Shown: positions 1 to 36,247 of the stretch, in pieces | Layout of the letters: the number at the start of each line of letters is the position of its first letter | Position numbering within the stretch: the first letter of the stretch is position 1 | IMG/VR virus record: IMGVR_UViG_3300046355_000213 | Coordinates: 61,035 to 125,034 of that record | Strand: one strand, 5' to 3' | Length of the DNA stretch: 64,000 nt | From: a virus | Translations under genes and position numbers: made by a program | The notes under the pieces: model-generated | Databases searched by the model: none | Told to the model about the DNA's origin: nothing | Seen by the model: the letters and a program-made list of their open reading frames with translations, nothing else

Positions 1-1698
1 TCCTGCTTTGGCACCGGCAGCAAGTATTTCTGTTGCCCGGTCATACATCATGTTATATAACTGGTTAGGACTGTCTCCTAACTTATAGCTCTTAGGAATA
101 ACACCTACATCCTGCAAGCGTTTGTGTTCTTTCTCCAGCTCAGGGTTTGTTAAAAACTTACCCGTTTTAATCACGCCAGATAGGTACTGCATGTAAGCAG
201 GGGATACCATCTTATCAGGACTTTGCATACCTGCTTCTGAAATGATACTGGCCCCTGTGCTTAAATATTCATCAGCCGTGCGGTTGAACTGCTCAGTCAT
301 TCGCTGGTGAGCGGCAACAGGATCTGTGCCCATGATACTTTTACCTACATAGATAGGTGTATCATTAGGATTACCTGCGTCCTTCTTATTGCCGGATGAA
401 CTGGAGCCTGAACCAGAGCCCGAAGCTCCACTGCCGTAGCGTGTCTGAAACTGTGAGTCATCCTGCAACATCTTGGCCATAGTCTTTTCCATCTCAAGGT
501 TAGCCTTGAATACCGGATCTATGTCAATCTTGTACTTGTTATTGATAGCCTGGTTGCGGGCAAAGTTTTGGATCAGTGCATTCTTGTTGGCCCTGCGGAA
601 GAAATCTTCACCACCATTAAGCATGCTGTTATATTCATCCTGATATTCTTTAGCATCAGGCTTAGAGTACTTGTCAATATTCTCCTGTAAGGAAGAAGAA
701 GAATTCTTGTAGCTTTCTAATTGAAGGGCTATGTTTTTACGCTCTGTCAATTCCTCAACAGTAAGTTCACCTTTAGCTTGTTTAGCCTTGAACTCTACGT
801 CCATGGCATCAAGCTTCTTGGTCATCTCTGTAACCTGCTCATCTAGGTCTGACTTTCTTTCTGTGTAGTATCCTCTTTGCTTAGTCATGTAGCCATCAGC
901 TACCATCTTCTTAGCAGTAGGTTCGTCATACCCTAAACCCTGGTATTGCTGTACCTGGCTGCGGTAATCTACCACACCCTGTACACGGAACATATCATCA
1001 GCCTGGGGCATACTGGCCAGTTCATTAGCCGCCCATTCTTTAAACAAAGGCACAGCACCGTCACCATTTGTGCGGGTGATCTTATACGCATTGTTGGGTC
1101 CTCCCTGGCTTTCTGTTTCAATCATCAGGCCCTGGTCTTTGGCACGCTTTTTCAACTCAGCCATTGTATCAAAGTAAGGAACATACTTGTTCACCTTGAC
1201 TTTAGATATAGAGCCGTCACCACGCTTTGCCATAGAAAGCTCATTGGCTGACAGGGCCACATAGTTAGCACCGGTCTGCCAGTATTGTTCTCTGACCTTG
1301 GGATCATTGGATTGTGCCATAGAATCAGCACGGGTACGCTCTGCGTTGATAGCAGAGGTCTTGGAGTAGTCCATCAAAAGGTCCTGGTCTTGCCAGAATG
1401 GAGCATACACTTGTTGGGCAGCATCCACATTTTGCATCTGTGAAAAGTCAACCCCTTGTAATTTCTTTAGTTGGTCCTCGGCCTGTTTGATATAGTTGTC
1501 TCTGACCACTTGATTGTCTGACACTGACAGTGCAGCATTACGGATCAAGCTGTCTGAGGATTTAACCTGGCTCAGTCCTTGCTCAAACATGGAAGATCTA
1601 CGCTGAAGCATAGAGTTCATCATACCAAAGTCCGGTGTGTATAACGGAAGCGGTGCTATAATGTCTGAGCCTGAAGGATACGGATTAATAGATGCCAT
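1..1698 (-). CDS. Large crAss-like cargo/ejected virion protein, N-terminal part (runs off the window; not in the ORF track)
   Basis: ATG at 1698 (MASINPYPSGSDIIAPLPLYTPDFGMMNSMLQRR...), just downstream of a late-promoter motif; appears to stay open to the window edge; follows the tail/cargo genes as in crAss-like phages. Confidence 0.7.
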   Translation of the reverse strand, partial: MASINPYPSGSDIIAPLPLYTPDFGMMNSMLQRRSSMFEQGLSQVKSSDSLIRNAALSVSDNQVVRDNYIKQAEDQLKKLQGVDFSQMQNVDAAQQVYAPFWQDQDLLMDYSKTSAINAERTRADSMAQSNDPKVREQYWQTGANYVALSANELSMAKRGDGSISKVKVNKYVPYFDTMAELKKRAKDQGLMIETESQGGPNNAYKITRTNGDGAVPLFKEWAANELASMPQADDMFRVQGVVDYRSQVQQYQGLGYDEPTAKKMVADGYMTKQRGYYTERKSDLDEQVTEMTKKLDAMDVEFKAKQAKGELTVEELTERKNIALQLESYKNSSSSLQENIDKYSKPDAKEYQDEYNSMLNGGEDFFRRANKNALIQNFARNQAINNKYKIDIDPVFKANLEMEKTMAKMLQDDSQFQTRYGSGASGSGSGSSSSGNKKDAGNPNDTPIYVGKSIMGTDPVAAHQRMTEQFNRTADEYLSTGASIISEAGMQSPDKMVSPAYMQYLSGVIKTGKFLTNPELEKEHKRLQDVGVIPKSYKLGDSPNQLYNMMYDRATEILAAGAKAG

Positions 1699-1752: not shown

Positions 1753-3723
1753 TTACTGTGTCATTCTCATGGCTGGAAACTGTCTGTTTTGCATACCGGC
1801 CATCATCTGCATGAATGGGTTCATCACAGAAGTAAAATCAGGGTAGCCATCATTGTCCTTATCAGTGGTAGTAGTACGGCCTTTTTGTTTCATCTGCTCG
1901 TCAGCCCATGCAGTTGCTTTGTCCATGGGCATTTTTAAGGTCTCCGTAGCATACTTGATCATCTCAGGATAAGTAGTTGCTGCTGCACCTGTACCTCTTG
2001 CACCACGGATCATGCTGTTGATGTCACGATTAGGATCTTTCTGTTTGGCAAATCCTGTACGGGAGTCAATCATGAAGTAAGGGTTGGTAGCATTGATGCC
2101 ATCCACCATTGCACGGTTGTTCCAGGCATTGTTGTATGCTGCCAGCAATTGACTGTCAGCAGCACTTTGGTTACGGAAGTTTTCTTTCAGTGCATTGTTT
2201 GCCATCTCGTTGTACATCGTACTTGCCTGGGCACGGTTAGCCAGATACTGGTTATCCATCTGTGCACCTTGTGTCTCATACTGATTGGCAATCATTACGT
2301 TTTGCTTATTTACCGCTCCTGCGTTGGCTTCATTGGCTGCCAGGTTTCTTCCTGCCACCTGTGATGCGCCTGCTAAGAATTGCTGTGGTCTTCCAAAGGT
2401 TCTCATACCCTGCATCTGCATGTTAGCCATCTCAGCATTCGCTGCATAGTCGCGGGTAGGGTCCATGAATACGGCCTTTGGTTTTACATAACCAGGTGTA
2501 GCTACAAAGGGCTTGATCGTAGGAATGGTTGCTCTGGTAGCCAGGGCCTGCATACCTGCCAGCTTATCTGGTAATAAGTAATCAGCATTAGGCATTTTAT
2601 ATGGAGCACCTGCTGTCCCTGGTTGTGGACCTGAAAGCATTTCCTCTTCAGACGTAGAACTAGTGTAAGGAGGGTAGCTGTTAGGTACAGGAGCCAAAGT
2701 AGGCAACTTCATCTGTACTGGGATAGGCATAGGAGCTCTTTGGATAGGGTCTACTTTTTCCATCAAACGCGGTGCACGGAAATCATAATAACCGTCATTG
2801 AACTGTTGCTTTAACTGCTCATCGGTTAACTGATTCACTGCTTTACCAGGATACATCTTCTTGCCCTTGTTAGTTAAAGGGACATTCTTTAGATAATTCA
2901 CAAACTGGTTGTTGAACTCAGGATCTTTTTGAGCACTCTGGATCATCCACTTCTGCCACTGGTCCACATTGTTTGGACTGCCCGTATAGCCACGGTTTCC
3001 ATAATAACTTGCCACGTCATTAAAACTGTCAAAAGAGTTCTCACGCATATCTTTCATGCCTGGTGTTCTCTTTCTGTAGTCCTCTGTTACCTGACCCTTA
3101 GTCTGGTACTGAGTTAAGCCGCCAAAAGCAGCTTGTGGCATAGCAGACTGTGCGATGTCTGGAATGCCTTGCGGGAAACCTTTCATGCTCTCCTGTAATA
3201 GGGCAAGCTGACCCAGCTTTTTTTGATTGTTGTCCATCATCATTTGAGCAGTCTGCTTTTTAAGCGGGTCTGCCAATGGATCATCAAGTACGCTCTTGTA
3301 CTTGTTCAGGTCATATTGCTTTGCCAGTTGAGCTGGAGTGTATTTTTTCTTAGAATCTGCACTTTTACCAAACATCTCCAGAGCGGCACCTCCAACCTTC
3401 ATCTTCTTTGTGTCAGAGAATATAAAGCTGCCAGGGTTCAGGTTAAGCGGCGTACCACCTTGAGAGTGACGCTTACCGCCAATCTTCATGTGTTCCTGCA
3501 TGCCGTCACCATCCAGGTCACCTACAACAGTCTCTCCTTTTTCTGCTTCCAGGTTAGCTTCTTCTCTTGGAACGGGCTGTAAGGTATCAGATACGGACTG
3601 GTAAGGACTATCCTCACGCATTTGGTTGTCTAACACCGGTTGACCTAAGTCAAGGTTGTAACCTCGCTGGCCACCATAAGCCATGTTAGGCATGTCCTTA
3701 ATACGTACTCTGTATGTTTTCAT
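1753..3723 (-). CDS. crAss-like cargo/internal virion protein
   Basis: 656 aa; EAEKGET...GKRHSQGG...FIFSD motif, Q/M/A-rich, xxxGG motifs, cargo-gene position. Confidence 0.65.
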   Translation of the reverse strand: MKTYRVRIKDMPNMAYGGQRGYNLDLGQPVLDNQMREDSPYQSVSDTLQPVPREEANLEAEKGETVVGDLDGDGMQEHMKIGGKRHSQGGTPLNLNPGSFIFSDTKKMKVGGAALEMFGKSADSKKKYTPAQLAKQYDLNKYKSVLDDPLADPLKKQTAQMMMDNNQKKLGQLALLQESMKGFPQGIPDIAQSAMPQAAFGGLTQYQTKGQVTEDYRKRTPGMKDMRENSFDSFNDVASYYGNRGYTGSPNNVDQWQKWMIQSAQKDPEFNNQFVNYLKNVPLTNKGKKMYPGKAVNQLTDEQLKQQFNDGYYDFRAPRLMEKVDPIQRAPMPIPVQMKLPTLAPVPNSYPPYTSSTSEEEMLSGPQPGTAGAPYKMPNADYLLPDKLAGMQALATRATIPTIKPFVATPGYVKPKAVFMDPTRDYAANAEMANMQMQGMRTFGRPQQFLAGASQVAGRNLAANEANAGAVNKQNVMIANQYETQGAQMDNQYLANRAQASTMYNEMANNALKENFRNQSAADSQLLAAYNNAWNNRAMVDGINATNPYFMIDSRTGFAKQKDPNRDINSMIRGARGTGAAATTYPEMIKYATETLKMPMDKATAWADEQMKQKGRTTTTDKDNDGYPDFTSVMNPFMQMMAGMQNRQFPAMRMTQ

Positions 3724-3735
3724 AGGAATATAGTC

Positions 3736-3751
3736 TACTCTTTAATATAAC
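3736..3751 (-). promoter_or_regulatory. Late promoter motif variant GTTATATTAAAGAGTA
   Basis: Degenerate copy just upstream of the ATG at 3723. Confidence 0.45.
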
Positions 3752-3788
3752 AAAATTTCTGGAGTTTAACAAGCTAAACCTAAAAGGT

Positions 3789-5234
3789 TTAAATGAACTC
3801 CACATCACCGCCCATAGCTTTGATCTGCATGATCTGGTCTGCTGTAAGCTCATACTCTCCACCTTGCTGCATCATTTCTACGTGCAGGTGATCTCCTTCA
3901 TCAATGATGTCTTCAATGCCGTAGCGCTGGCGGATCTGTGGGCTCTGGCTTAAAAGGCCTTTCAGTTGATTGTAAGCCCTTCTATCAGAAGAGTTGGCAC
4001 CAATGTCAATAGCTTTGTTCTGGTAATGCTTGGAGCCACTCATGTGCTTGCTGTCATTGCCGGAAGAAATCTTCAGGCCAGGAAACTGTGCACTCATGTC
4101 TGTAGCAAAAGCACTAAGACCTGCATCCAGGTTATTGATGTTTACTCCTGGCTTAGTATCCAGGCCGGTATAGTTTGCATTGGTTGTACCAAAAGCATCG
4201 CGGGTTATCTTACCCTTACCAAAGTAATCCATAGCTCCCTTAGGCCCTGCAAAATGAATCATCATTTTTATCTGGTCTACAGACTGCTTGGGATTGTACT
4301 GCTGTTTAATCTTCTGGGCATACGGCGTCAGGGTATTAGCATTCCAATAGTCAAAGTATTTTTCCTGGGCATCCGGAGTATCTAAGAAAGCTTGCTTGCT
4401 GTCTACTCCTGTTACCGTGCGGATAGTGTCTTTGTGTTGGTTCCATAAGAACTGATACTTACCCGCTGCAGAACTTGCCAGGGAACCGTCTTTCTTTTTA
4501 GGAAGGGCCCGGTAGTCGCCGCCACTCTCACGGGTAGCAATCTGCTCTTTTAATGATATAGAGGCAGATTTAAAGTTTGTCTCTGCAGGTTGAGCAGGCA
4601 TACTAGGCATCTCCGGCATAGTCTGTGGCATATAGTCCATAGGGTTCACCAGGGCCGTATTACTAAACGCATCAATAGAAGGCACCATGTACTGTTCTGT
4701 CTCAGCGTTAACTCCTCCTACCTGAAAGAACCGTCCACCATTGTACTGTCCTTCCGGAGACTTGACACCCATTTGATCTGGTCTGAATAAACCATAGTCA
4801 GAAGGCCCTACACCGTAGTTACCTCTATCCATGGAGTTTTCTCCTTGTTGGTTAAACTGGGCATTACGGTTACGTAATAAGGTATCACGCTCTCTTTCAG
4901 CATCACCCTTGTTGAAAGCTGCATTGTAAAGATTAGCAGCATTATATCCTGCATTCATCACATCCATGAAATTAACTGTCCTTTTAGGTAGGTCAATTTC
5001 AGGATTCTCCTTAGCAATACGTTGCTTTAGGTCATTGGCAAATACAGCATCTGCAGCAGCACCTGTAGGAGCCTGAGTAGGAAAAGCCTGATTTGTCATT
5101 TGAAAATCATTGCTGGCCTGATCAATCATTTCCTGGTCAGATAATTGAAACTGAAACTTGTTAGGAGTTATCTGAGGAAAAGTGTTCTGCCCTGCCAGCT
5201 GAAATTTCTTAAGCCCTGTTATACGGATCTTCAT
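3789..5234 (-). CDS. Virion-associated peptidoglycan hydrolase: lysozyme-like domain plus M15-like Zn peptidase domain
   Basis: IATRESGGDY...AAGKYQF lysozyme-like motif; SKHYQNKAIDI...DHLHVE (H-x6-D...HxH) peptidase motif; likely start MKIRITG at 5234, right after the upstream stop. Confidence 0.75.
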   Translation of the reverse strand: MKIRITGLKKFQLAGQNTFPQITPNKFQFQLSDQEMIDQASNDFQMTNQAFPTQAPTGAAADAVFANDLKQRIAKENPEIDLPKRTVNFMDVMNAGYNAANLYNAAFNKGDAERERDTLLRNRNAQFNQQGENSMDRGNYGVGPSDYGLFRPDQMGVKSPEGQYNGGRFFQVGGVNAETEQYMVPSIDAFSNTALVNPMDYMPQTMPEMPSMPAQPAETNFKSASISLKEQIATRESGGDYRALPKKKDGSLASSAAGKYQFLWNQHKDTIRTVTGVDSKQAFLDTPDAQEKYFDYWNANTLTPYAQKIKQQYNPKQSVDQIKMMIHFAGPKGAMDYFGKGKITRDAFGTTNANYTGLDTKPGVNINNLDAGLSAFATDMSAQFPGLKISSGNDSKHMSGSKHYQNKAIDIGANSSDRRAYNQLKGLLSQSPQIRQRYGIEDIIDEGDHLHVEMMQQGGEYELTADQIMQIKAMGGDVEFI

Positions 5235-5235
5235 G

Positions 5236-8148
5236 TTATAGTACTTCAAAAGTGTAACCAAGCCTTTTTAACTCTGCCATCTGTGCAGGAGTCACTTCCA
5301 TTTCATCACCTACTGAATGCTGTCCTCCATTTTTCATAGAGCCTCCGCATTCAAAGCATGGCATACCGCCTGCTTCATAAAAGGCATTACCTGAGAATGT
5401 AGAGCCGCCGTCTTTCCATGTCTTTCTGGCAAATGCCCTGAAAAATGGATTGTTGTCTAAGTTCTTTTTATGTCTGGCATAGAAAGCTGCTTTTCTCTCT
5501 GGGTCTTTAGGATGCTGACCTAAGTTAGAATCCCCAAAATATTTGACAGTGCCATCAGGACCTGTTACTTTATGGGTCTTTCCTTTTCTGTCATTGCTTC
5601 TGCTTACAGTGTACCCACCATTAGCCATCTGCTCCATCTGTTCCTCAGTCATCTCCTGGTTCTCCGGAGAGTACATCATGTTGTCATATACAGAACCGGC
5701 AAAGTCATCCATAAGAGTGATCTTGCTTGCCTGCCAGGGTTCCAGGTCAGAATCTGGCTTAATGAACTTACGAAGCTTATCCAGCTTATCCATCATAGCA
5801 TTGATCTGAGACAGAGCCATCTCACCATCTGGTTGACCACCATCACCCATGAACGGCATATAACCGCCGTAAGCATACCCGTAGTCATCCATCTTATCCA
5901 GGTTACCGGCAGCTGCAAAACGGGCACGAGCAATTTCTTCTGGCATTTTGCCTCCCTCTGCATATTGTGCTTTAGGTTTTTTTCCTGCAGCTTTCATTGC
6001 CATAGCAATAGCTGCTTGTTGTGCTGAACCGCCATAGGCCATGTTACTCATGATCTTTGCTTGTACAAATTCCGGTAAAGCTTTAAAGCCAGGATTATCT
6101 GTACCGCCACCATAAGCTTTCTCAGGCGTTACATACAATGAAGTATTAGCCCCCACGTTTTTAAAGTAAGGATTATCTAAAGTCTTTTTGCGGCAGTTGA
6201 TACAACCTGCACTCATGCGGTTATCAGATACTTTATTATTGTCAAATAATTTCTCCCTGTCACCTAACAAGTGAGTAGGAATACCGTGCATGGCTACACT
6301 CACTTTTCTGTTAGGGTTTGCAGGATCCGGAAGCAAACGCTTGTTAGGATCTGTATGCTGGATGTAAAAGAAGTTATCAGACCCATAGTTTTTACCATAG
6401 TCGGTTGCACTTGTGTTACCCTTACCTGCACGGTTCATGGTATATTCACCGGAAGGTGTAGTTCTTTTCTTATAAAACACCGGTTGTTCATCACCTGCAT
6501 CTTGGCCCAGCCCAACCTCATCTTGTAAAGCAAGGTTACCATTCTCATCAAAGAAATAACCACGGGCATTCTGCTTGGATACAATACCAAACTTCTTGCC
6601 TTTGTTCTTCTCTGCGTATTGATTGTAGTAGTTGTACACATCCTGAGGAAGGTCAAAAGATTGCTCTTGTACCTCATCCTCATTCATGCCAAAAGTTCTT
6701 TCAAACCAGTTACGGTTATCTACCTTGTTGTTTACACGTTGCATACCTTTAGCGGTTGCTTTAGTTTGCGTAGTAGGTACGTAGGCAGGCATAGCGGATT
6801 GAACCGCAGGAGAAGCATAGTTTATGTTTACTCGGGGTTTCTCCTGGTACTGCAGCATGTTGAGCATTTGCTTGTTCTGCTCAGCTGTACCTTTGTAATT
6901 ATTGGCAAAGTATTTATCAAATACTTTCTTACGGCTGCTAAAGTCTGCATCCATACCACGGGCCGCCATATAATCATACAAGCTGCCGCCTTTCTGCATC
7001 TCTACTTCCATACCGTACTCAGCTTTTTTCCAACCACCACCTTTGCTCTTATACCACTTAGCTGCCCATCCATTAGCGTAAGCACTTGGATACACATCAT
7101 ACTTTTGTCTGGCCATAGACTTAGCTCTTGACCATAAAGACGGGTTGGTAGGGACATTACCCCCTGATTTGAATTCTTCCATGTCGTTGTACATTTCTTC
7201 ACCCCCAAACTCACGTCTGCGGTGTTGGTAATTTATTTTATCACTTGATGTTTTCTCTCTGGTAAACTTTGCCTTCTCTGCAGATGATAACTCAGAAGAT
7301 GTCTTGGGTGTATCGTCATTAACTCTCTTGCTAGGCCTGCATGCCGGATAACCCTTGCGGGATTCTCCCTCTTGTCTGCCACAGTCTTTGCCTGTCTTTA
7401 CATCTACCCACTTCTCTGCAAACCATCTGTCCAGACCACCGTGTTGACCACCTGATGCATTCTTTGGTAATACACCAGTTCCTTTTTTATAATTTTCACC
7501 AAACCAGGTTGCTGCAGCATCATTAGGAAACTGTATATAAGTCTTAGTAGAGTCTGCATAATCAAATGCATCTTTGCCTAAATACTTTAAAGTACCGTTA
7601 GGCATTTGTACTACAGTTGGATATACACGACTATCACCACTTTGCATATAGTGAGTACTAGGTCCTTTTACTCCAGGTATCTGCATAGAAGGTGTATTCT
7701 TTGGATATAGTCTTTGCACCCAATTAAGATTCTTGTTAGCATTTAGTACAGAATCAACATAAGCTGTTCCACCACCTTGCATCTTAACAGAACCTCCACA
7801 CTTATGACATGTCATAGGATCAGATCCACCATCAACTGCTTTCCAAGAATGACCACAACTAGAGCAAGTAACAGATCGACTTAATAGTCCACCATTCTGC
7901 ATCATTGGATACTCAGTAACGTTATCTGCATCAGGAAATAGATAGTCTTGATTAGGATACATCATTTGAGCTTGTCCAATATTAGGGACCCCTAACACAG
8001 GATAACTAACACCATCCATCGTAATATTATTAGAAGGTATGTTAGTAATCTCACCAGGATGTTGCCACTGGTTACGGGGTACTTTAGGCTTAGAAGGCTT
8101 GGACATCTTCTTTTGGATATCGGCAAGTAAACTCTTATTTAGACTCAT
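5236..8148 (-). CDS. Multi-module cargo protein with an L,D-transpeptidase-like domain, Zn ribbon and several small phage modules separated by xxxGG motifs
   Basis: 970 aa; TTPSGEY...VAMHG...RMSAGCIN (YkuD-like His/Cys motif); CSSC...CHKC ribbon; about 15 GG motifs. Confidence 0.7.
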   Translation of the reverse strand: MSLNKSLLADIQKKMSKPSKPKVPRNQWQHPGEITNIPSNNITMDGVSYPVLGVPNIGQAQMMYPNQDYLFPDADNVTEYPMMQNGGLLSRSVTCSSCGHSWKAVDGGSDPMTCHKCGGSVKMQGGGTAYVDSVLNANKNLNWVQRLYPKNTPSMQIPGVKGPSTHYMQSGDSRVYPTVVQMPNGTLKYLGKDAFDYADSTKTYIQFPNDAAATWFGENYKKGTGVLPKNASGGQHGGLDRWFAEKWVDVKTGKDCGRQEGESRKGYPACRPSKRVNDDTPKTSSELSSAEKAKFTREKTSSDKINYQHRRREFGGEEMYNDMEEFKSGGNVPTNPSLWSRAKSMARQKYDVYPSAYANGWAAKWYKSKGGGWKKAEYGMEVEMQKGGSLYDYMAARGMDADFSSRKKVFDKYFANNYKGTAEQNKQMLNMLQYQEKPRVNINYASPAVQSAMPAYVPTTQTKATAKGMQRVNNKVDNRNWFERTFGMNEDEVQEQSFDLPQDVYNYYNQYAEKNKGKKFGIVSKQNARGYFFDENGNLALQDEVGLGQDAGDEQPVFYKKRTTPSGEYTMNRAGKGNTSATDYGKNYGSDNFFYIQHTDPNKRLLPDPANPNRKVSVAMHGIPTHLLGDREKLFDNNKVSDNRMSAGCINCRKKTLDNPYFKNVGANTSLYVTPEKAYGGGTDNPGFKALPEFVQAKIMSNMAYGGSAQQAAIAMAMKAAGKKPKAQYAEGGKMPEEIARARFAAAGNLDKMDDYGYAYGGYMPFMGDGGQPDGEMALSQINAMMDKLDKLRKFIKPDSDLEPWQASKITLMDDFAGSVYDNMMYSPENQEMTEEQMEQMANGGYTVSRSNDRKGKTHKVTGPDGTVKYFGDSNLGQHPKDPERKAAFYARHKKNLDNNPFFRAFARKTWKDGGSTFSGNAFYEAGGMPCFECGGSMKNGGQHSVGDEMEVTPAQMAELKRLGYTFEVL

Positions 8149-11100
8149 CGTAAACTAGGTTGCAACTTGGTGTTAATTAACTTGAACAGGAACTTCACAG
8201 GGCCGGATACATTCTTTCTGAGCAGTACCCTGTTTACATAGTGGCGGAACTTCTTACGTTCCATCACATTCTTATTGTAATCCACATACCGTGCGTTGAT
8301 CTTACGGGTGTATCCATTGCTGGACACATTGAACATAGGCTCCATATTAGTAGTAAACTCACCCCTGTCCTTGGTGATATCCCAGAACTGGTTGAACCGG
8401 TACTTGTTCTCTTCTTTTGAGTACAGGATGTCTACTCCATTAGCCTGGACCTTTGGATAGGTTAGCAGGGCTACCGGGTTGTTCTTTGGCTTGAGGTCAA
8501 GCTTTAGGTTACCGGAGATCTGCTCTGAGTTATATACAATGGCATTGTCAAAGTTCTCATCTAAAAGGTGGAACTTGTCCTGACCGTCATTGAAGTACTT
8601 GAACGTCTCCAGCACATACTCTACGTTTCTTACCGTAGCGACCTGCTGGCCTGTAGACACCACAAACTCCACTTCAAAAGGATAATCTTTTCCGTAGAAG
8701 TTACAGAACTGGTCTGTGCGTACATTGTGTCTCCATACGCCTCTATCCTTAACCGTTAGGAAGCTGCTTCTGCCCGGAATGATAAAGTTAGGATGCCAGT
8801 CATGGAAACTTAAGAAAGCTCCTTTGCCCTCAGCTGCCTTTGGATCATAGGAAATAGTCCAGCTGGCATCTTCAAAGTGAGAGGGGTCGCCCAAGGCTAT
8901 CTTGTTCTTAGTTTTCTTGATGGTCTTTGTGCCATCAGTATTGGTAACAACGAACTCTTCTCCGTCTGTGTAGAAACCATCCACACTGTTCCACTTCATT
9001 GCTTCAGTGGTAGGCTTGAAGTCACGCTTGGTGATATAGAGCAACTCATTGGTATTATCATAGGACATGTTACAGCCTACGCCTACCAGTGGGTTATCCC
9101 CCAGGTTATAATCAGGAAAGGCACGTAGTAACTGAGAAGGCAAGTGCTTGGCAAACCACCACTTGTTTCCTCTTCTAGAAACTTCATCCATCTCACCGCC
9201 ATAGCGGAATATCTTACCCTGTTCCTGGGATACCCAGTACACACCACCTGGAATACCGGCAATGGCAAATTTGCTTTGGCAAGAGCCATACTGGTACTCA
9301 TCATCCGTGTTCATGATGTTACGCAACGGTTGGTTAAACAATCCCGCATCACCAATGGTAAGCTTGATGCCTCCATCAGTCTGCAGACTGTCTACACCCT
9401 GGATCGTAATAGGAGCTTCATTCTCCAGCATGATCAGGGCTCCTGTGCCACCTACTGCCTTTAGAGCCGTCACACGAGATGACATGTCTAAGTAGTTGTT
9501 GGGTAGGAACCTCACCCAGTTATCCTGCTTCTGCTCAGTCTCCTGAGGTAGCGAGTACATAATACGGTTAGGCGAATAAGCATAGCAGTTCTCAGCAATG
9601 CGCGGATCATAGTCGCGGTTTTGCAAAGCTCCCCAGCTTACATAGTTATTGTACAGACGCGCAACACTTAAGGAGTAGTCATACTTATAGAAGTTGCTTG
9701 TCTTGATATTGTCAGAGCGAAACATGGTCTGCACATCTGTGAACCGGTCCGGATCATAGTGTCTCTTACTGGCGACATCTTCCCAGTCCCTGAAAGCCAG
9801 GTTGACCTCTGATTCTACCCAGAAGTCACGTACCCCGTTACAGGAAATATAGAAGTATCCTTTCTCCACAAAGAACCCTTTGTCTACGCGGTCATCTAAG
9901 TGACGGCCTATGCTCGGGAAATTAGTAATGTCTTTGTTGGGCTTACCATTTTCTATCCAGTAACGCGGATAGGCCACCGTGATATAATTACGGTAGTCGT
10001 AGGCAATGTTATCCGGCTGGTCATAGAGCCACTCACTAAAGAAAGTGAATGGGTTCTTCTCTGTATAACGACCAACGTACACATCCCCACCAAACATGAT
10101 GTCTGTAGAGTAACGCGTAGCTAGGTCTGTACCCACATTGTACATACAAGTGTAGACAGGAACCTGCTTAATGCTTTCCAGCTGTCCGTATTGGGAAGGA
10201 AAGTTGATCTTGAGTGCACCATAATGCGCGGAGATGTCGGTTGTAACATTCTTGTTCAGGTCAACTTGCAGCTGGCCCTTTGTCTTACGCGAGATATCAA
10301 CCCGTAACGGATTGGCAATCTCTTTGGTTGTGCTGACAAACACATAACCACTGCGGTCTACGTTATTGATCTTGTAGTTATTGTAGTTCTGCAGGTTGTT
10401 GTTTACATAGAAACTATCTGCAACACCCCTGCGACTGTTGTCTGAGGAAGCATTAAGACTGAAGTTGCTGTAGTAACCGTGAGAGTTATACTGTGCTGAG
10501 TATTGTTTTTCCGGCAGTAAGGAGACGATGACACTGATGATCTTCTCATTGTACATGTCAGCCATCAACTTAGCCGTAGAAATCAAAATAACAATGTTGG
10601 CTACGTGCTGTGCAAGAACAAGTGCGTACGCCACAGCATTTGCAGCTGCACCTACACCAAAGGCATCAGAGCCACCCGGAGGGCCGGGAAATGATGCAGG
10701 AGCACCACCCACCTCAAAAGAGAGCGGAAGGTCCTCGCTGGCAGCAAAGGTCAGTTTCTTACTGGCACCTGTAGCCAAAGCAGAGATACTGTTCATGGTT
10801 GCAAAAACCGACAACAGCTTTCCTACAATACTCAAAGAGTCTGAGATCTGTTTGAACTTAGGGTGTTTGTACACATGCTCAAAGTTTCCAAGCGCCTGGC
10901 CGTAAACTTCTGCATAAAGTTTTACCTCCTGAACACTCAGGTAAGGTTTGGAAAAAGAAGTATCCGGACTGTGAAAAGAGAACATGTCTTTTCTGTAAGC
11001 CGTAAGGGGATTAGATCTCCTGTTGCTCTTGGAACCACTCTCTATGGATTTCTCATCAGAGGTCAGGTACAGATCCGGGTTAAGGTCATTGTACGGATAG

Positions 11101-12761
11101 TTTTGGTACAAGCCCTTGGTCCCGTTACCACCGGGAATATTAAACTCCCGCATGTTGTTAAAGATACCCTTAGCTACAATGGTCTTGTTGCCTTCACGGG
11201 AACCTCTTAGGATCTCATAGCCTACAATAGAGGTAATGGCTTTACCGTAGTTATCTACCGGTATCTGGATGTTCTCAAACTTCACGCCCAGTACGCGGAT
11301 CTTGTCCCCGCCCTGAGAGTGGTGGTAGGTCTCCTCTGATAGTTTATTATCAGGAAACTTATGGTGACGGATAGGCTTGCCACACAGGTTCCCCCAGATC
11401 TCAAACTTGTTATCCGGATAACGCTCGGTGCTTTCCCAGTAACCCATCTCCCCCTCAGCCAGTACCATACCGCCATCGGCAAGTTTAGTGCCTGGTGTGT
11501 TGGTGATAGAGGCCGTGTTATTTACCTGCCAAGCCTGTGCTGTCTGATCATTGTCGAGCTCAATAGCATCTGCTGTAGCCAGGTTGATACGCTCACTGTC
11601 TAAAGCTTCCCTGCCAGGAATATGGAAAGAAGCACTCTTGTCCCCTGTGTTATATACCCAGCGGATAAAGAACGCGTACTGCTCATCTCTCATGTAGCCG
11701 GTGTTGTTTCCCCCGTTGGCATAATAGTTAGCCGGGTACTCTACACTCACCCACTTAGTGCGGATCTGGTTAGCCAGGTTCTGGTAGTTAAAGTCAAAGC
11801 GGTTATAGATACCCGTACGCACTAAATAATTATTCAGGCGGAACATGGCATCACTCTTCTCAATAGCCGGAGTGTTCAACGGGATCTGCTCCAGCGGAAT
11901 AGTGATCAGGTCAGGCTCTGCAGAGTCAATAAATAACTTGGTCTGACGGGTAGAGTATATACCCAGTCTTTTGGCCACTGTGCTTTGATTTACCACTGAG
12001 ATGAGTACTACTTCCATCTCATCAAAATCAGGGTCTGTATTGGTCACAGAAACGTCCAGGGAACCTCCCCCACCATCGTGGTCAAAGAGTCCCTGTACCT
12101 CAGACACTACTAAGTAATCTGTTACCCGAATAGAGTTGACAGTATAAGCCAGGGCAACCTGGTAAGAGCCGTTACGAAGGGTACCGGACGCCCGGCCCTT
12201 CTCAATACGTACACAAGGGATGGTCAGGATCTGGGCCAGTCTTAACTGCTCCACATCCAGTACACCTGTTGATTTCTCAATGATGCAGTCTCCCTGCATT
12301 TCTTTTGTAGTAAAATACGGCGGGCTGTCCATGGCCATCACCCGGTCAGGGTTGCGGCCATCAGACCAGTACACCTTAAAGCCACAGTCCGCGTTGCGTC
12401 TGGCAGCTCCTGTGATCAGGTTGGTCCTTCTGAAGTTTAGCTTGGGATCATTGACCACTAAACGATAAGTACCCAGGTTGGCATCAAAGACTCCAATCTC
12501 ACAATTGTTATCATCTGTGGTAAACAAAGCCCAGGTGCCGTCACTGATAGGAATAGCTCCTATAAGGGTGTACGGAAGGTCAATAGTGTGAAGATTGGCT
12601 GGCTCATTTCCCAATACGCCCATCTCACCCGTATGCGTGTTGTTCACCGCATTACGGGCATGTACCCACTGGCCCTCACCTATAAAGGTTTCATTGAGGT
12701 CCTTGAGCATACCCTTGGAAAAGGTATTGATCGCACCAGGATTTTGATTGCTCTGAGCCAT
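8145..12761 (-). CDS. Tail stabilization / muzzle protein (crAss-like, P22 gp10-like)
   Basis: 1538 aa; NTFSKGMLKD...ARNA N-terminus, GYMRDEQYAFFIRW, IRHHKFP, WTISY...FLSFHDWHP motifs; follows ring-protein genes. Confidence 0.8.
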   Translation of the reverse strand: MAQSNQNPGAINTFSKGMLKDLNETFIGEGQWVHARNAVNNTHTGEMGVLGNEPANLHTIDLPYTLIGAIPISDGTWALFTTDDNNCEIGVFDANLGTYRLVVNDPKLNFRRTNLITGAARRNADCGFKVYWSDGRNPDRVMAMDSPPYFTTKEMQGDCIIEKSTGVLDVEQLRLAQILTIPCVRIEKGRASGTLRNGSYQVALAYTVNSIRVTDYLVVSEVQGLFDHDGGGGSLDVSVTNTDPDFDEMEVVLISVVNQSTVAKRLGIYSTRQTKLFIDSAEPDLITIPLEQIPLNTPAIEKSDAMFRLNNYLVRTGIYNRFDFNYQNLANQIRTKWVSVEYPANYYANGGNNTGYMRDEQYAFFIRWVYNTGDKSASFHIPGREALDSERINLATADAIELDNDQTAQAWQVNNTASITNTPGTKLADGGMVLAEGEMGYWESTERYPDNKFEIWGNLCGKPIRHHKFPDNKLSEETYHHSQGGDKIRVLGVKFENIQIPVDNYGKAITSIVGYEILRGSREGNKTIVAKGIFNNMREFNIPGGNGTKGLYQNYPYNDLNPDLYLTSDEKSIESGSKSNRRSNPLTAYRKDMFSFHSPDTSFSKPYLSVQEVKLYAEVYGQALGNFEHVYKHPKFKQISDSLSIVGKLLSVFATMNSISALATGASKKLTFAASEDLPLSFEVGGAPASFPGPPGGSDAFGVGAAANAVAYALVLAQHVANIVILISTAKLMADMYNEKIISVIVSLLPEKQYSAQYNSHGYYSNFSLNASSDNSRRGVADSFYVNNNLQNYNNYKINNVDRSGYVFVSTTKEIANPLRVDISRKTKGQLQVDLNKNVTTDISAHYGALKINFPSQYGQLESIKQVPVYTCMYNVGTDLATRYSTDIMFGGDVYVGRYTEKNPFTFFSEWLYDQPDNIAYDYRNYITVAYPRYWIENGKPNKDITNFPSIGRHLDDRVDKGFFVEKGYFYISCNGVRDFWVESEVNLAFRDWEDVASKRHYDPDRFTDVQTMFRSDNIKTSNFYKYDYSLSVARLYNNYVSWGALQNRDYDPRIAENCYAYSPNRIMYSLPQETEQKQDNWVRFLPNNYLDMSSRVTALKAVGGTGALIMLENEAPITIQGVDSLQTDGGIKLTIGDAGLFNQPLRNIMNTDDEYQYGSCQSKFAIAGIPGGVYWVSQEQGKIFRYGGEMDEVSRRGNKWWFAKHLPSQLLRAFPDYNLGDNPLVGVGCNMSYDNTNELLYITKRDFKPTTEAMKWNSVDGFYTDGEEFVVTNTDGTKTIKKTKNKIALGDPSHFEDASWTISYDPKAAEGKGAFLSFHDWHPNFIIPGRSSFLTVKDRGVWRHNVRTDQFCNFYGKDYPFEVEFVVSTGQQVATVRNVEYVLETFKYFNDGQDKFHLLDENFDNAIVYNSEQISGNLKLDLKPKNNPVALLTYPKVQANGVDILYSKEENKYRFNQFWDITKDRGEFTTNMEPMFNVSSNGYTRKINARYVDYNKNVMERKKFRHYVNRVLLRKNVSGPVKFLFKLINTKLQPSLR

Positions 12762-19408: not shown

Positions 19409-19423
19409 TACATTATAATATAC
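19409..19423 (-). promoter_or_regulatory. Late promoter motif GTATATTATAATGTA
   Basis: Exact consensus copy upstream of the 19373 start. Confidence 0.7.
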
Positions 19424-19461
19424 CAAAACTTGGTGGTTTTTACAAATAAATGTTGACTAAC

Positions 19462-24231: not shown

Positions 24232-24246
24232 TACATTATAATATAC
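24232..24246 (-). promoter_or_regulatory. Late promoter motif GTATATTATAATGTA
   Basis: Exact consensus copy upstream of the 24213 start. Confidence 0.7.
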
Positions 24247-24270
24247 CTAAAAATGTTGTACTTATCGTTA

Positions 24271-36212: not shown

Positions 36213-36227
36213 TCAATAATAATATAC
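36213..36227 (-). promoter_or_regulatory. Late promoter motif variant GTATATTATTATTGA
   Basis: Repeat copy between a terminator and the 36171 start. Confidence 0.6.
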
Positions 36228-36247
36228 CAAAAATTGAGCAGGATTCC

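Follow-up and report, generated by a model that had tools for sequence, protein, structure and literature searches.

In polyketide synthases (PKS) and nonribosomal peptide synthetases (NRPS), consecutive gene products carry docking domains, short matched elements at their C and N termini, some of which pair by beta-strand addition and charge complementarity. In chaperone-usher pili, the N-terminal extension of subunit n+1, with its alternating hydrophobic residues, completes the fold of subunit n, and an ordered chain results. Here we describe, on three consecutive proteins of an uncultured crAss-like phage, an acidic motif at the C terminus of one protein (C-motif) and a basic strand at the N terminus of the next (N-strand), together with the positions, conservation, co-occurrence, and charge of both. 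The stretch analyzed (the window, 64,000 nucleotides) comprises bases 61035 to 125034 of one 125,034-base virus contig, IMG/VR record IMGVR_UViG_3300046355_000213, which CheckV rates as 100% complete. By analogy, the arrangement would work like PKS/NRPS docking or like the donor-strand complementation of pili, and it belongs to neither. With PKS/NRPS docking it shares matched ends on consecutive gene products, found here at 21 of 21 and 13 of 13 boundaries in two samples and at one boundary in a cultured phage. However, the window proteins contain no docking-domain family (Pfam gave only DUF5872, YkuD, and crAss_MUZ), they are putative virion cargo, the C-terminal element is also an internal repeat, and binding of the two elements is putative. 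With donor-strand complementation it shares a K/R-h-K/R-h core (h, hydrophobic) in the first 10 residues of all 21 follower genes of the first sample, but there is no incomplete immunoglobulin-like fold, and the acceptor would be a strand-helix-strand module of about 25 residues with low predicted order.

In phage crAss001, the muzzle gene gp44 is followed by the cargo genes gp45 and gp46 and then by genes for RNA-polymerase-associated proteins, and according to the available text of the structure paper all were detected in virions (PMC10172136). The same text describes the cargo as stored partly unfolded and proposed to exit from the N to the C terminus; how the proteins are packed and how they interact with one another likely controls their order (PMC10172136). 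The genes for gp45 (C1) and gp46 (C2) come directly after the muzzle gene, as do those of the window, and gp45 has a basic start followed by Gly-Gly (GG). The difference is that crAss001 cargo lacks the C-motif and that the available part of the paper describes no docking between proteins (PMC10172136). The virion RNA polymerase of phage N4 is described, in the part of the paper available, as loosely linked domains that pass like "beads-on-a-string" through a tail channel of about 35 Å (PMC13434306). That string is one covalent chain, whereas here the string would span several gene products.

Terminal motifs at consecutive gene boundaries

A muzzle-like tail gene is followed in the window by three genes on the same strand, the position expected of a crAss-type cargo block. 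These genes and their terminal motifs are as follows.

5236 to 8148, minus strand: first cargo-type protein, 970 residues, no N-strand, C-motif at its end (translation; Pfam DUF5872, E = 8.1e-18, and YkuD, E = 1.9e-7)
5239 to 5310, minus strand: C-motif 1, last 24 residues of the 970-residue protein (hidden Markov model, HMM, 43.8 bits, reaching the last residue; BLOSUM62 test)
3789 to 5234, minus strand: second cargo-type protein, 481 residues, with N-strand, enzyme domains, and terminal C-motif (translation; homologue starts)
5190 to 5234, minus strand: N-motif 1, first 15 residues of the 481-residue protein, a basic alternating strand and then hydrophobic-x-x-A-G (translation; homologue identity)
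3792 to 3863, minus strand: C-motif 2, last 24 residues of the 481-residue protein (HMM, 37.5 bits, terminal)
1753 to 3723, minus strand: third cargo-type protein, 656 residues, with N-strand and without C-motif (translation; HMM negative for the C-motif)
3670 to 3723, minus strand: N-motif 2, first 18 residues of the 656-residue protein, a basic alternating strand and then M-A-Y-G-G (translation)

The initial annotation had noted that the 970-residue protein and the protein encoded after it end in the same motif of about 24 residues. This proved correct to the residue. The two ends, ...GDEMEVTPAQMAELKRLGYTFEVL and ...GGEYELTADQIMQIKAMGGDVEFI, share 8 of 24 identities, with an ungapped BLOSUM62 score of 39. 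For comparison, the entire 125-kb genome was translated in six frames, and 60,701 24-mers were scored (mean, -21.8; standard deviation [SD], 10.0). Only these two motifs reached 39, each against the other, and the next best score was 29, at residues 828 to 851 of the 970-residue protein. Among 185 open reading frame (ORF) C termini, the next best score against the C-motif was 14. In a whole-protein BLASTP comparison of the first and second proteins, the C-terminal pair was absent among the matches listed (best E, 0.055). The consensus is Gly-Gly, then roughly h-h-E-L-T-x-x-E-I-x-x-L-x-x-x-G-Y-x-h-E-x-h, and then the stop, an acidic element of about 25 residues. The second and third proteins begin MKIRITGLKKFQLAG and MKTYRVRIKDMPNMAYGG, and translation bore out that both open with a K/R-(I/V)-R-I strand followed by a GG-type motif. 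For the middle gene, the correct start is the ATG at 5234, 1 nucleotide past the upstream stop, and not the TTG at 5261 of the mechanical ORF; this start is backed by 9 of 44 homologues, which were found to begin MKIRITG.

Loci of relatives (L001 to L026) were gathered by searches with the muzzle and cargo proteins. Ranking of C termini set 21 ORFs, all with scores of at least 17, apart from the rest, which reached 15 at most, and an HMM built from 17 of them agreed. All 21 terminal C-motifs, from 13 sources, are followed by a gene with an N-strand; 17 of the 21 boundaries are distinct, the termini of L007/L009 and of L012/L013 being identical. The gaps measure -1 to 10 nucleotides or 58 to 67 nucleotides in this set, the longer class starting at 56 nucleotides when all boundaries are counted. 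The K/R-h-K/R-h core is found in the first 10 residues of 22 of the 306 ORFs of this set, and 21 of the 22 are exactly those after a terminal C-motif. An independent sample was taken by scanning viral contigs for DNA that encodes a 7-residue signature of the internal copies. The resulting 80 loci held 21 terminal C-motifs, 14 of them unique, and 13 were scored, as one had no downstream sequence. All 13 have an N-strand follower, 11 by the strict pattern and 2 as obvious variants (MKSVRIRK... and MRVQITKLP...); 3 of the 13 boundaries lie on contigs sampled before, and one of the three had not been seen in the first sample. Cultured phage Lbo-JY46 has the pair as well: a 674-residue protein ends in the C-motif (29.8 bits), and a 484-residue protein, MKIRIIGLPKAQIG, starts 11 nucleotides later. 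The check suggested by the initial annotation, whether in relatives a C-motif is followed by a gene with a strand start, therefore came out positive in both samples and in the cultured phage. Read-through or frameshifting across the boundaries was considered and rejected because gaps and frames vary among loci.

The Lbo-JY46 pair (L114; PP438436.1, 16452 to 19942; proteins XAI97385 and XAI97384) belongs to the closest cultured relative with both motifs, and its host is the cyanobacterium Leptolyngbya boryana. The usual hosts of crAss-like phages are Bacteroidota. The 22nd ORF with the core is a small module gene in L020, an unrelated small contig. Here (4021 to 4683, plus strand) modules of the 970-residue protein are present as separate genes of 54, 115, and 53 residues; each starts with M-(A)-K-h-K-h-K and lacks the C-motif.

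The ends of the chains also follow a pattern. An N-strand is never present on the protein encoded directly after the muzzle gene, which has a conserved N terminus of its own (consensus of 20 proteins); the 970-residue protein, starting MSLNKSLL..., conforms to it. Middle proteins carry the two motifs. In the last member the C-motif is missing, and the gene after it starts differently (MATY... or MAS...) in nine of the nine loci where it is visible. Chains of two (L002), three (the window and L074), and four proteins (L095) were found, and by translation and HMM the absence of the N-motif from the first protein and of the C-motif from the last, as first noted for the window, holds at each of these sizes. 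The 656-residue protein is taken as the end of its chain, since it has an N-strand and no C-motif. Last members (L006, L074, L067, L095, L019, and L016) have their own hydrophobic tail with N-P-F or P-F-M-F-like residues, such as ...NVFPFMF. and ...NPFIM, and the window protein has ...NPFMQMM... (1753 to 1830, minus strand). This tail may be a separate C-terminal signal.

Both termini are strongly conserved. Among nine homologues of the 481-residue protein, identity is 0.49 overall, 0.87 over the first 15 residues, and 0.93 over the last 16, so that the termini are more conserved than the catalytic regions and are the best-conserved parts of the protein. They also carry opposite charges. Over their last 24 residues, 17 C-motif proteins have a mean charge of -4.2, against +0.79 for other C termini (SD, 2.65; n = 256), and residues 2 to 11 of the follower genes have a mean charge of +3.6, against +0.65 for others (SD, 1.68; n = 278). 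At boundary 1, the strand is encoded by AAG ATC CGT ATA ACA where more A/U-rich synonyms exist, which points to selection at the amino acid level; from this codon choice, a purely nucleotide-level start context was judged unlikely.

A repeat family and the form of the junction

A C-motif profile searched against 1.84 billion cluster representatives matched 1118 proteins at an E value of 0.001 or less and 101 at 1e-10 or less. Copies were counted in the top 150 of the 1118 representatives. At least one copy was found in 149 of them, 327 copies in total; 124 proteins have a copy that ends within 3 residues of the C terminus, and 203 copies are internal. Of 10 representatives scanned with Pfam, 4 matched DUF7210 (PF23843, 38 positions) over the helix and the last strand of the C-motif, but only at 12.9 to 17 bits, below the gathering cut-off of 27 bits, and the window proteins had no DUF7210 match at an E value of 0.01. 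A profile search of the PDB with the C-motif returned nothing significant; the best match (E = 0.015) was to helix-strand units of a designed TIM barrel and does not indicate homology. In the literature searched there was no trace of the C-motif, of a cargo docking idea for phages, or of a study of Lbo-JY46, and the C-motif is absent from the cultured phages phi17:2, Fpv1, crAss001, and csAssE-Sib. From these searches the C-motif is apparently a widespread and uncurated repeat family. The window may hold one internal copy, which is uncertain because of its low HMM score.

5596 to 5667, minus strand: weak, degenerate internal C-motif copy, residues 828 to 851 of the 970-residue protein (score, 29; HMM, 5.8 bits; independent E value, 0.24)

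One family of representatives (P0035, P0044, P0046, P0063, P0064, P0087, P0091, and P0099) has a near-identical N terminus, one internal and one terminal C-motif, and a wholly variable middle of 0 to about 800 residues. It looks like a payload cassette bordered by the C-motif. At residues 95 to 120, approximately, of the 970-residue protein (7800 to 7870, minus strand) there is a zinc-ribbon-like Cys-x2-Cys ... Cys-x2-Cys module with GG on both sides, and similar modules (KKVTCKKCGW...DGG) come after internal C-motifs in several representatives.

Internal and terminal copies are followed by related sequences. The linkers after internal copies are short and end in Gly-Gly or x-Gly. Three classes (PKAQ-type, S-I-P-x-L-type, and short ..GG) cover 153 of the 203 internal copies, and the same classes come after the N-strand in 21 of 29 follower genes. 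A basic strand within 20 residues downstream was found for 0 of the 203 internal copies, and the strand therefore appears only where the chain is broken. Because the linker classes are shared and no internal copy has the strand, the split junction can be read as an internal junction plus a stop, a start, and 6 to 9 residues of basic strand between module and linker. The cut in the linker can fall elsewhere, as one family ends in the C-motif plus a ...KLKKFI. tail. As judged at the level of sequence, consecutive cargo gene products are thus joined by a strict, conserved, and strongly selected junction. In another group of crAss-like phages, a cargo protein begins M..WLDKY..GG and ends ..GWLDKY. 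(L025, 9827 to 12283; L026, 9410 to 10270), and WLDKY at both ends may be a different code for the junction.

Proposed head-to-tail docking and the alternatives

Of four readings of the junction, the one ranked first, and held tentatively, is that the proteins dock head to tail through strand addition. On this reading, the three genes that come next after the muzzle gene would encode virion cargo (ejection) proteins with cell-wall-degrading domains, joined by a junction code in which an acidic module closes protein n at its extreme C terminus and a basic K/R-I/V strand with a linker ending in Gly-Gly opens protein n+1. The basic strand would pair with the acidic module as an added beta strand, helped by their complementary charges. 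Cargo proteins made by separate translation would in this way form one noncovalent, head-to-tail chain of beads on a string in gene order. This chain would act like the fused polyproteins of relatives, and its packing and its passage through the tail could follow a fixed order. Docking is favored because the strand is found only at breaks, because the first protein has no strand and the last no C-motif, and because fused and split forms interchange. Adjacent and often translationally coupled genes would be the best layout for co-translational pairing. We infer both that the motifs bind each other and that this binding fixes the order of packaging or ejection.

Several observations weigh against docking. 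The pairing of the C-motif of protein n with the strand of protein n+1, as the initial annotation proposed it, was found at every terminal copy examined, but it does not extend to the internal copies, which number 203 against 124 terminal ones in the 150 proteins and none of which has a strand in cis. As there is no partner strand beside them, the C-motif must have some role that is independent of an adjacent N-strand. The converse is also seen. A loose N-strand pattern matched 45 unique ORFs, 29 of them after a terminal C-motif (30 with L075, by inspection); the remaining 15 include several unrelated or shadow ORFs as well as clear cargo-type starts in L047/L067 and L082. The protein upstream of the L047/L067 gene ends in a ...KLKKF.. 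tail, and the C-motif of L082 has 32 further residues after it. Outside the loose pattern, N-strand genes without an upstream terminal C-motif were recognized by eye in L004/L005, in L015, and at a downstream Met of the L001 ORF (MSSKIKLK...). A csAssE-Sib protein begins MKLRIIKNRPIFAPGG with no C-motif nearby, and crAss001 gp45 has its basic start although gp45, gp46, and gp47 are all without the C-motif (best score, 3.3 bits). Because N-strand starts exist without the C-motif, the strand plus GG looks older and more widespread than the C-motif.

The natural fusions are mixed evidence. Split and fused forms alternate among relatives. In L019 the first and second proteins are fused (1376 residues); homology to the second protein sets in only at residue 7 of the latter, so that the strand is missing there, and no C-motif hit lies ahead of this point. 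In L002 and L018, parts of the second protein are joined to the third, the M15 part and the C-motif are absent, and the strand of the third protein is kept internally with no C-motif before it, which again counts against docking. This internal strand retains its Met in both (L002, 18553 to 21834, residue 436 or so; L018, 12099 to 14963, residue 153 or so), and it is therefore a possibility that internal initiation yields the downstream protein separately. The two motifs thus do occur apart, as internal copies, as N-strand genes without an upstream C-motif, and in these two fusions, and with the internal copies the independence of the C-motif that the initial annotation had named as speaking against docking was found in part. 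Moreover, the boundaries fall into a few types, each made up of orthologues, so that the instances are not independent, the matching of cognate ends is confounded with shared descent, and independent pairs are too few to show covariation between the two strands.

Models of single proteins also weigh against docking. In the AlphaFold 2 (AF2) model of the 481-residue protein, residues 1 to 32 have a predicted local distance difference test (pLDDT) score of about 34, the C-motif is seen only as a helix (residues 465 to 473), and the whole-protein model has no pairing between its own two ends. The model of a natural 130-residue protein with two C-motif copies was unusable (mean pLDDT, 38.6). The strand-helix-strand form of the C-motif is therefore only a predicted secondary-structure tendency, as AF2 has low confidence at both motifs. 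Complex prediction with the C-terminal 45 and the N-terminal 40 residues, run without controls, gave scores of 0.19 and 0.21 against a mark of 0.32, a result that weighs on neither side of the binding question. By the AF2 models both motifs resemble short linear motifs of disordered regions, as would fit cargo that is stored partly unfolded.

Many of the exceptions are accommodated if the two motifs are independent polarity signals, the N-strand being a leader that engages the portal, the tail channel, or the muzzle, and the C-motif an anchor or spacer that binds another virion component or itself. The pairing would then merely come from adjacent cargo genes and conserved gene order. This is possible, if doubtful on balance, and comes close behind docking. 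It is favored by strand plus GG without any C-motif in gp45-like starts, csAssE-Sib, L001, L004/L005, and L015, by the internal C-motifs that have no strand, and by the strand kept in the L002 and L018 fusions; furthermore, the available text assigns to separate segments of crAss001 gp45 contacts with the portal, with the tail barrel, and, probably, with the muzzle, and proposes ejection from N to C (PMC10172136). Yet such signals leave unexplained why the strand comes after every terminal copy and after 0 of 203 internal ones, why the first cargo protein has a different N terminus, and why the last member needs no C-motif, and a narrow channel would not hold the leaders of several proteins at 12 copies each. 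We consider it unlikely that the junction is only a by-product of cassette boundaries, where conserved linkers around variable payloads serve as points of recombination or fission and the strand is simply a workable new start (Met, Lys-rich codons, and coupling). The family whose hypervariable middle lies between conserved termini and copies of the motif would suit this explanation, as would the frequent fusion and fission, the breaks at different linker points (before a GLKKF-type segment or after the ...KLKKFI tail), the small L020 modules that are separate genes with an M-x-K-h-K-h-K start, and the gaps of -1 to 10 nucleotides, which fit translational coupling. It accounts poorly for an alternating K/R-I/V pattern that is specific enough to be seen in only 1 of 285 other ORFs, that is among the most conserved segments of the protein, that uses non-optimal A/U codons, and that is equally present where a spacer of 56 to 67 nucleotides, probably with a promoter, separates the genes.

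Proteolytic processing, in which hydrophobic-x-x-G-G sites are cleaved and the N-strand and C-motif are pro-peptides or spacers removed in maturation, has even less in its favor and is improbable. GG does border both motifs, and the 970-residue protein, built of small modules divided by Gly-Gly, has 23 GG dipeptides where 9.7 are expected. In cargo proteins (the 970-residue protein and those of L002 to L019), M, Y, or F stands three residues before GG at 99 of 228 GG sites; crAss001 gp45 has the hydrophobic-x-x-GG pattern too, and a hinge or a cleavage site are both conceivable. A preprint, in the part available, proposes cleavage of fused crAss-like virion polyproteins. However, a search of this complete genome for proteases of families C39 and C48 (PF03412 and PF02902) gave no match. 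The search for adenain (C5, PF00770) also gave none, but its control was negative everywhere, so that it carries no weight, and a host protease or one of another kind may act. The hydrophobic residue lies one position further from GG than in the adenain consensus. The main text of the crAss001 paper contains no word beginning with "cleav" or "proteoly" (PMC10172136), and strong conservation would be unusual for discarded peptides, although targeting pro-peptides exist.

The putative cargo block and its possible role

The remaining features of the region are the genes on either side of the chain and the spacer within it.

8145 to 12761, minus strand: muzzle-like tail gene, 1538 residues (Pfam crAss_MUZ, E = 1.2e-40; phrog_37948, virion structural protein, E = 6.6e-68)
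3724 to 3788, minus strand: 65-nucleotide spacer between the second and third genes (alignment of 7 spacers, 58 to 67 nucleotides)
1 to 1698, minus strand: next gene after the chain, 952 residues in the full contig, cut by the window edge; both motifs are absent, and the gene is not part of the chain

The muzzle-like gene marks the start of the cargo gene block. Its product is 25 to 28% identical to the muzzle proteins of Leptolyngbya phage Lbo-JY46, csAssE-Sib, and Cellulophaga and Flavobacterium phages, and the cultured relatives are thus distant. The three genes after it probably encode cargo or ejection proteins, judging from the synteny with crAss001 and from their wall-degrading domain content. 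The YkuD domain of the 970-residue protein is an L,D-transpeptidase domain. The 481-residue protein has a lytic-transglycosylase-like domain (Pfam PF01464, SLT, in more distant homologues) and a LAS/M15-like peptidase domain, and AF2 blocks over residues 231 to 450 have pLDDT scores of 72 to 97. A fold search with its AF2 model found nothing at an E value of 0.001 or less; the weak matches to hedgehog/LAS peptidases (E = 6e-3) and to the phiKZ lysozyme-like gp144 (E = 0.11) may be said only to agree with these enzyme domains. The 656-residue protein has no Pfam or PHROG match, and BLASTP against crAss001 gp45, the only pair compared, detected no homology (best E, 0.44). Downstream of it, the full contig has genes of 952, 4560, and 1928 residues. 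The giant 4560- and 1928-residue genes (contig bases 40335 to 59822, minus strand, outside the window) probably include the virion RNA polymerase, judged by their position.

The spacer before the third gene is kept at the DNA level in seven distant phages, with the blocks ..GTTTA.., ..TTAAA.., and ..TTT(A/T)GT(A/T)TATTA.., and is possibly a phage promoter. TTTT.G.TATATTA-like words are present on the coding strand just upstream of four other structural genes (1709 to 1722, 19416 to 19429, 24239 to 24252, and 36220 to 36233, minus strand), and the window as a whole holds 11 such words against 11.9 expected, no excess over chance.

Podovirus-like phages load several large proteins into the virion and drive them through a narrow tail in the right order, and it is an open question how they do so. 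The available text of the crAss001 structure paper gives packing and mutual interactions as the probable basis of this order and names no interaction (PMC10172136). The motif pair on consecutive gene products offers a concrete hypothesis that can be tested with peptides. On the docking reading, a junction code would let crAss-like phages split an injected polyprotein into several genes with its order kept, each module capturing the strand of the next product; this wider view is possible but must be regarded as somewhat doubtful. At least three apparent pair types are seen (...GYTFE.. with K-I/Y-R/K-I-T, ...GYIVEE.. with R-V-R-I-Y-K, and ...GG.hE[FY]h with R-V-R-I-K), and internal module copies would be extra docking or bundling points. 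Both the motif family and the genomic rule appear to be undescribed, the mechanism being offered as a hypothesis. As Lbo-JY46 carries the pair and grows on Leptolyngbya boryana, experiments are possible. Even if docking is wrong, the C-motif marks cargo proteins and module boundaries and so aids the annotation of uncharacterized virion genes. With 1118 representatives, the hypothesis would cover a large clade of environmental crAss-like phages.

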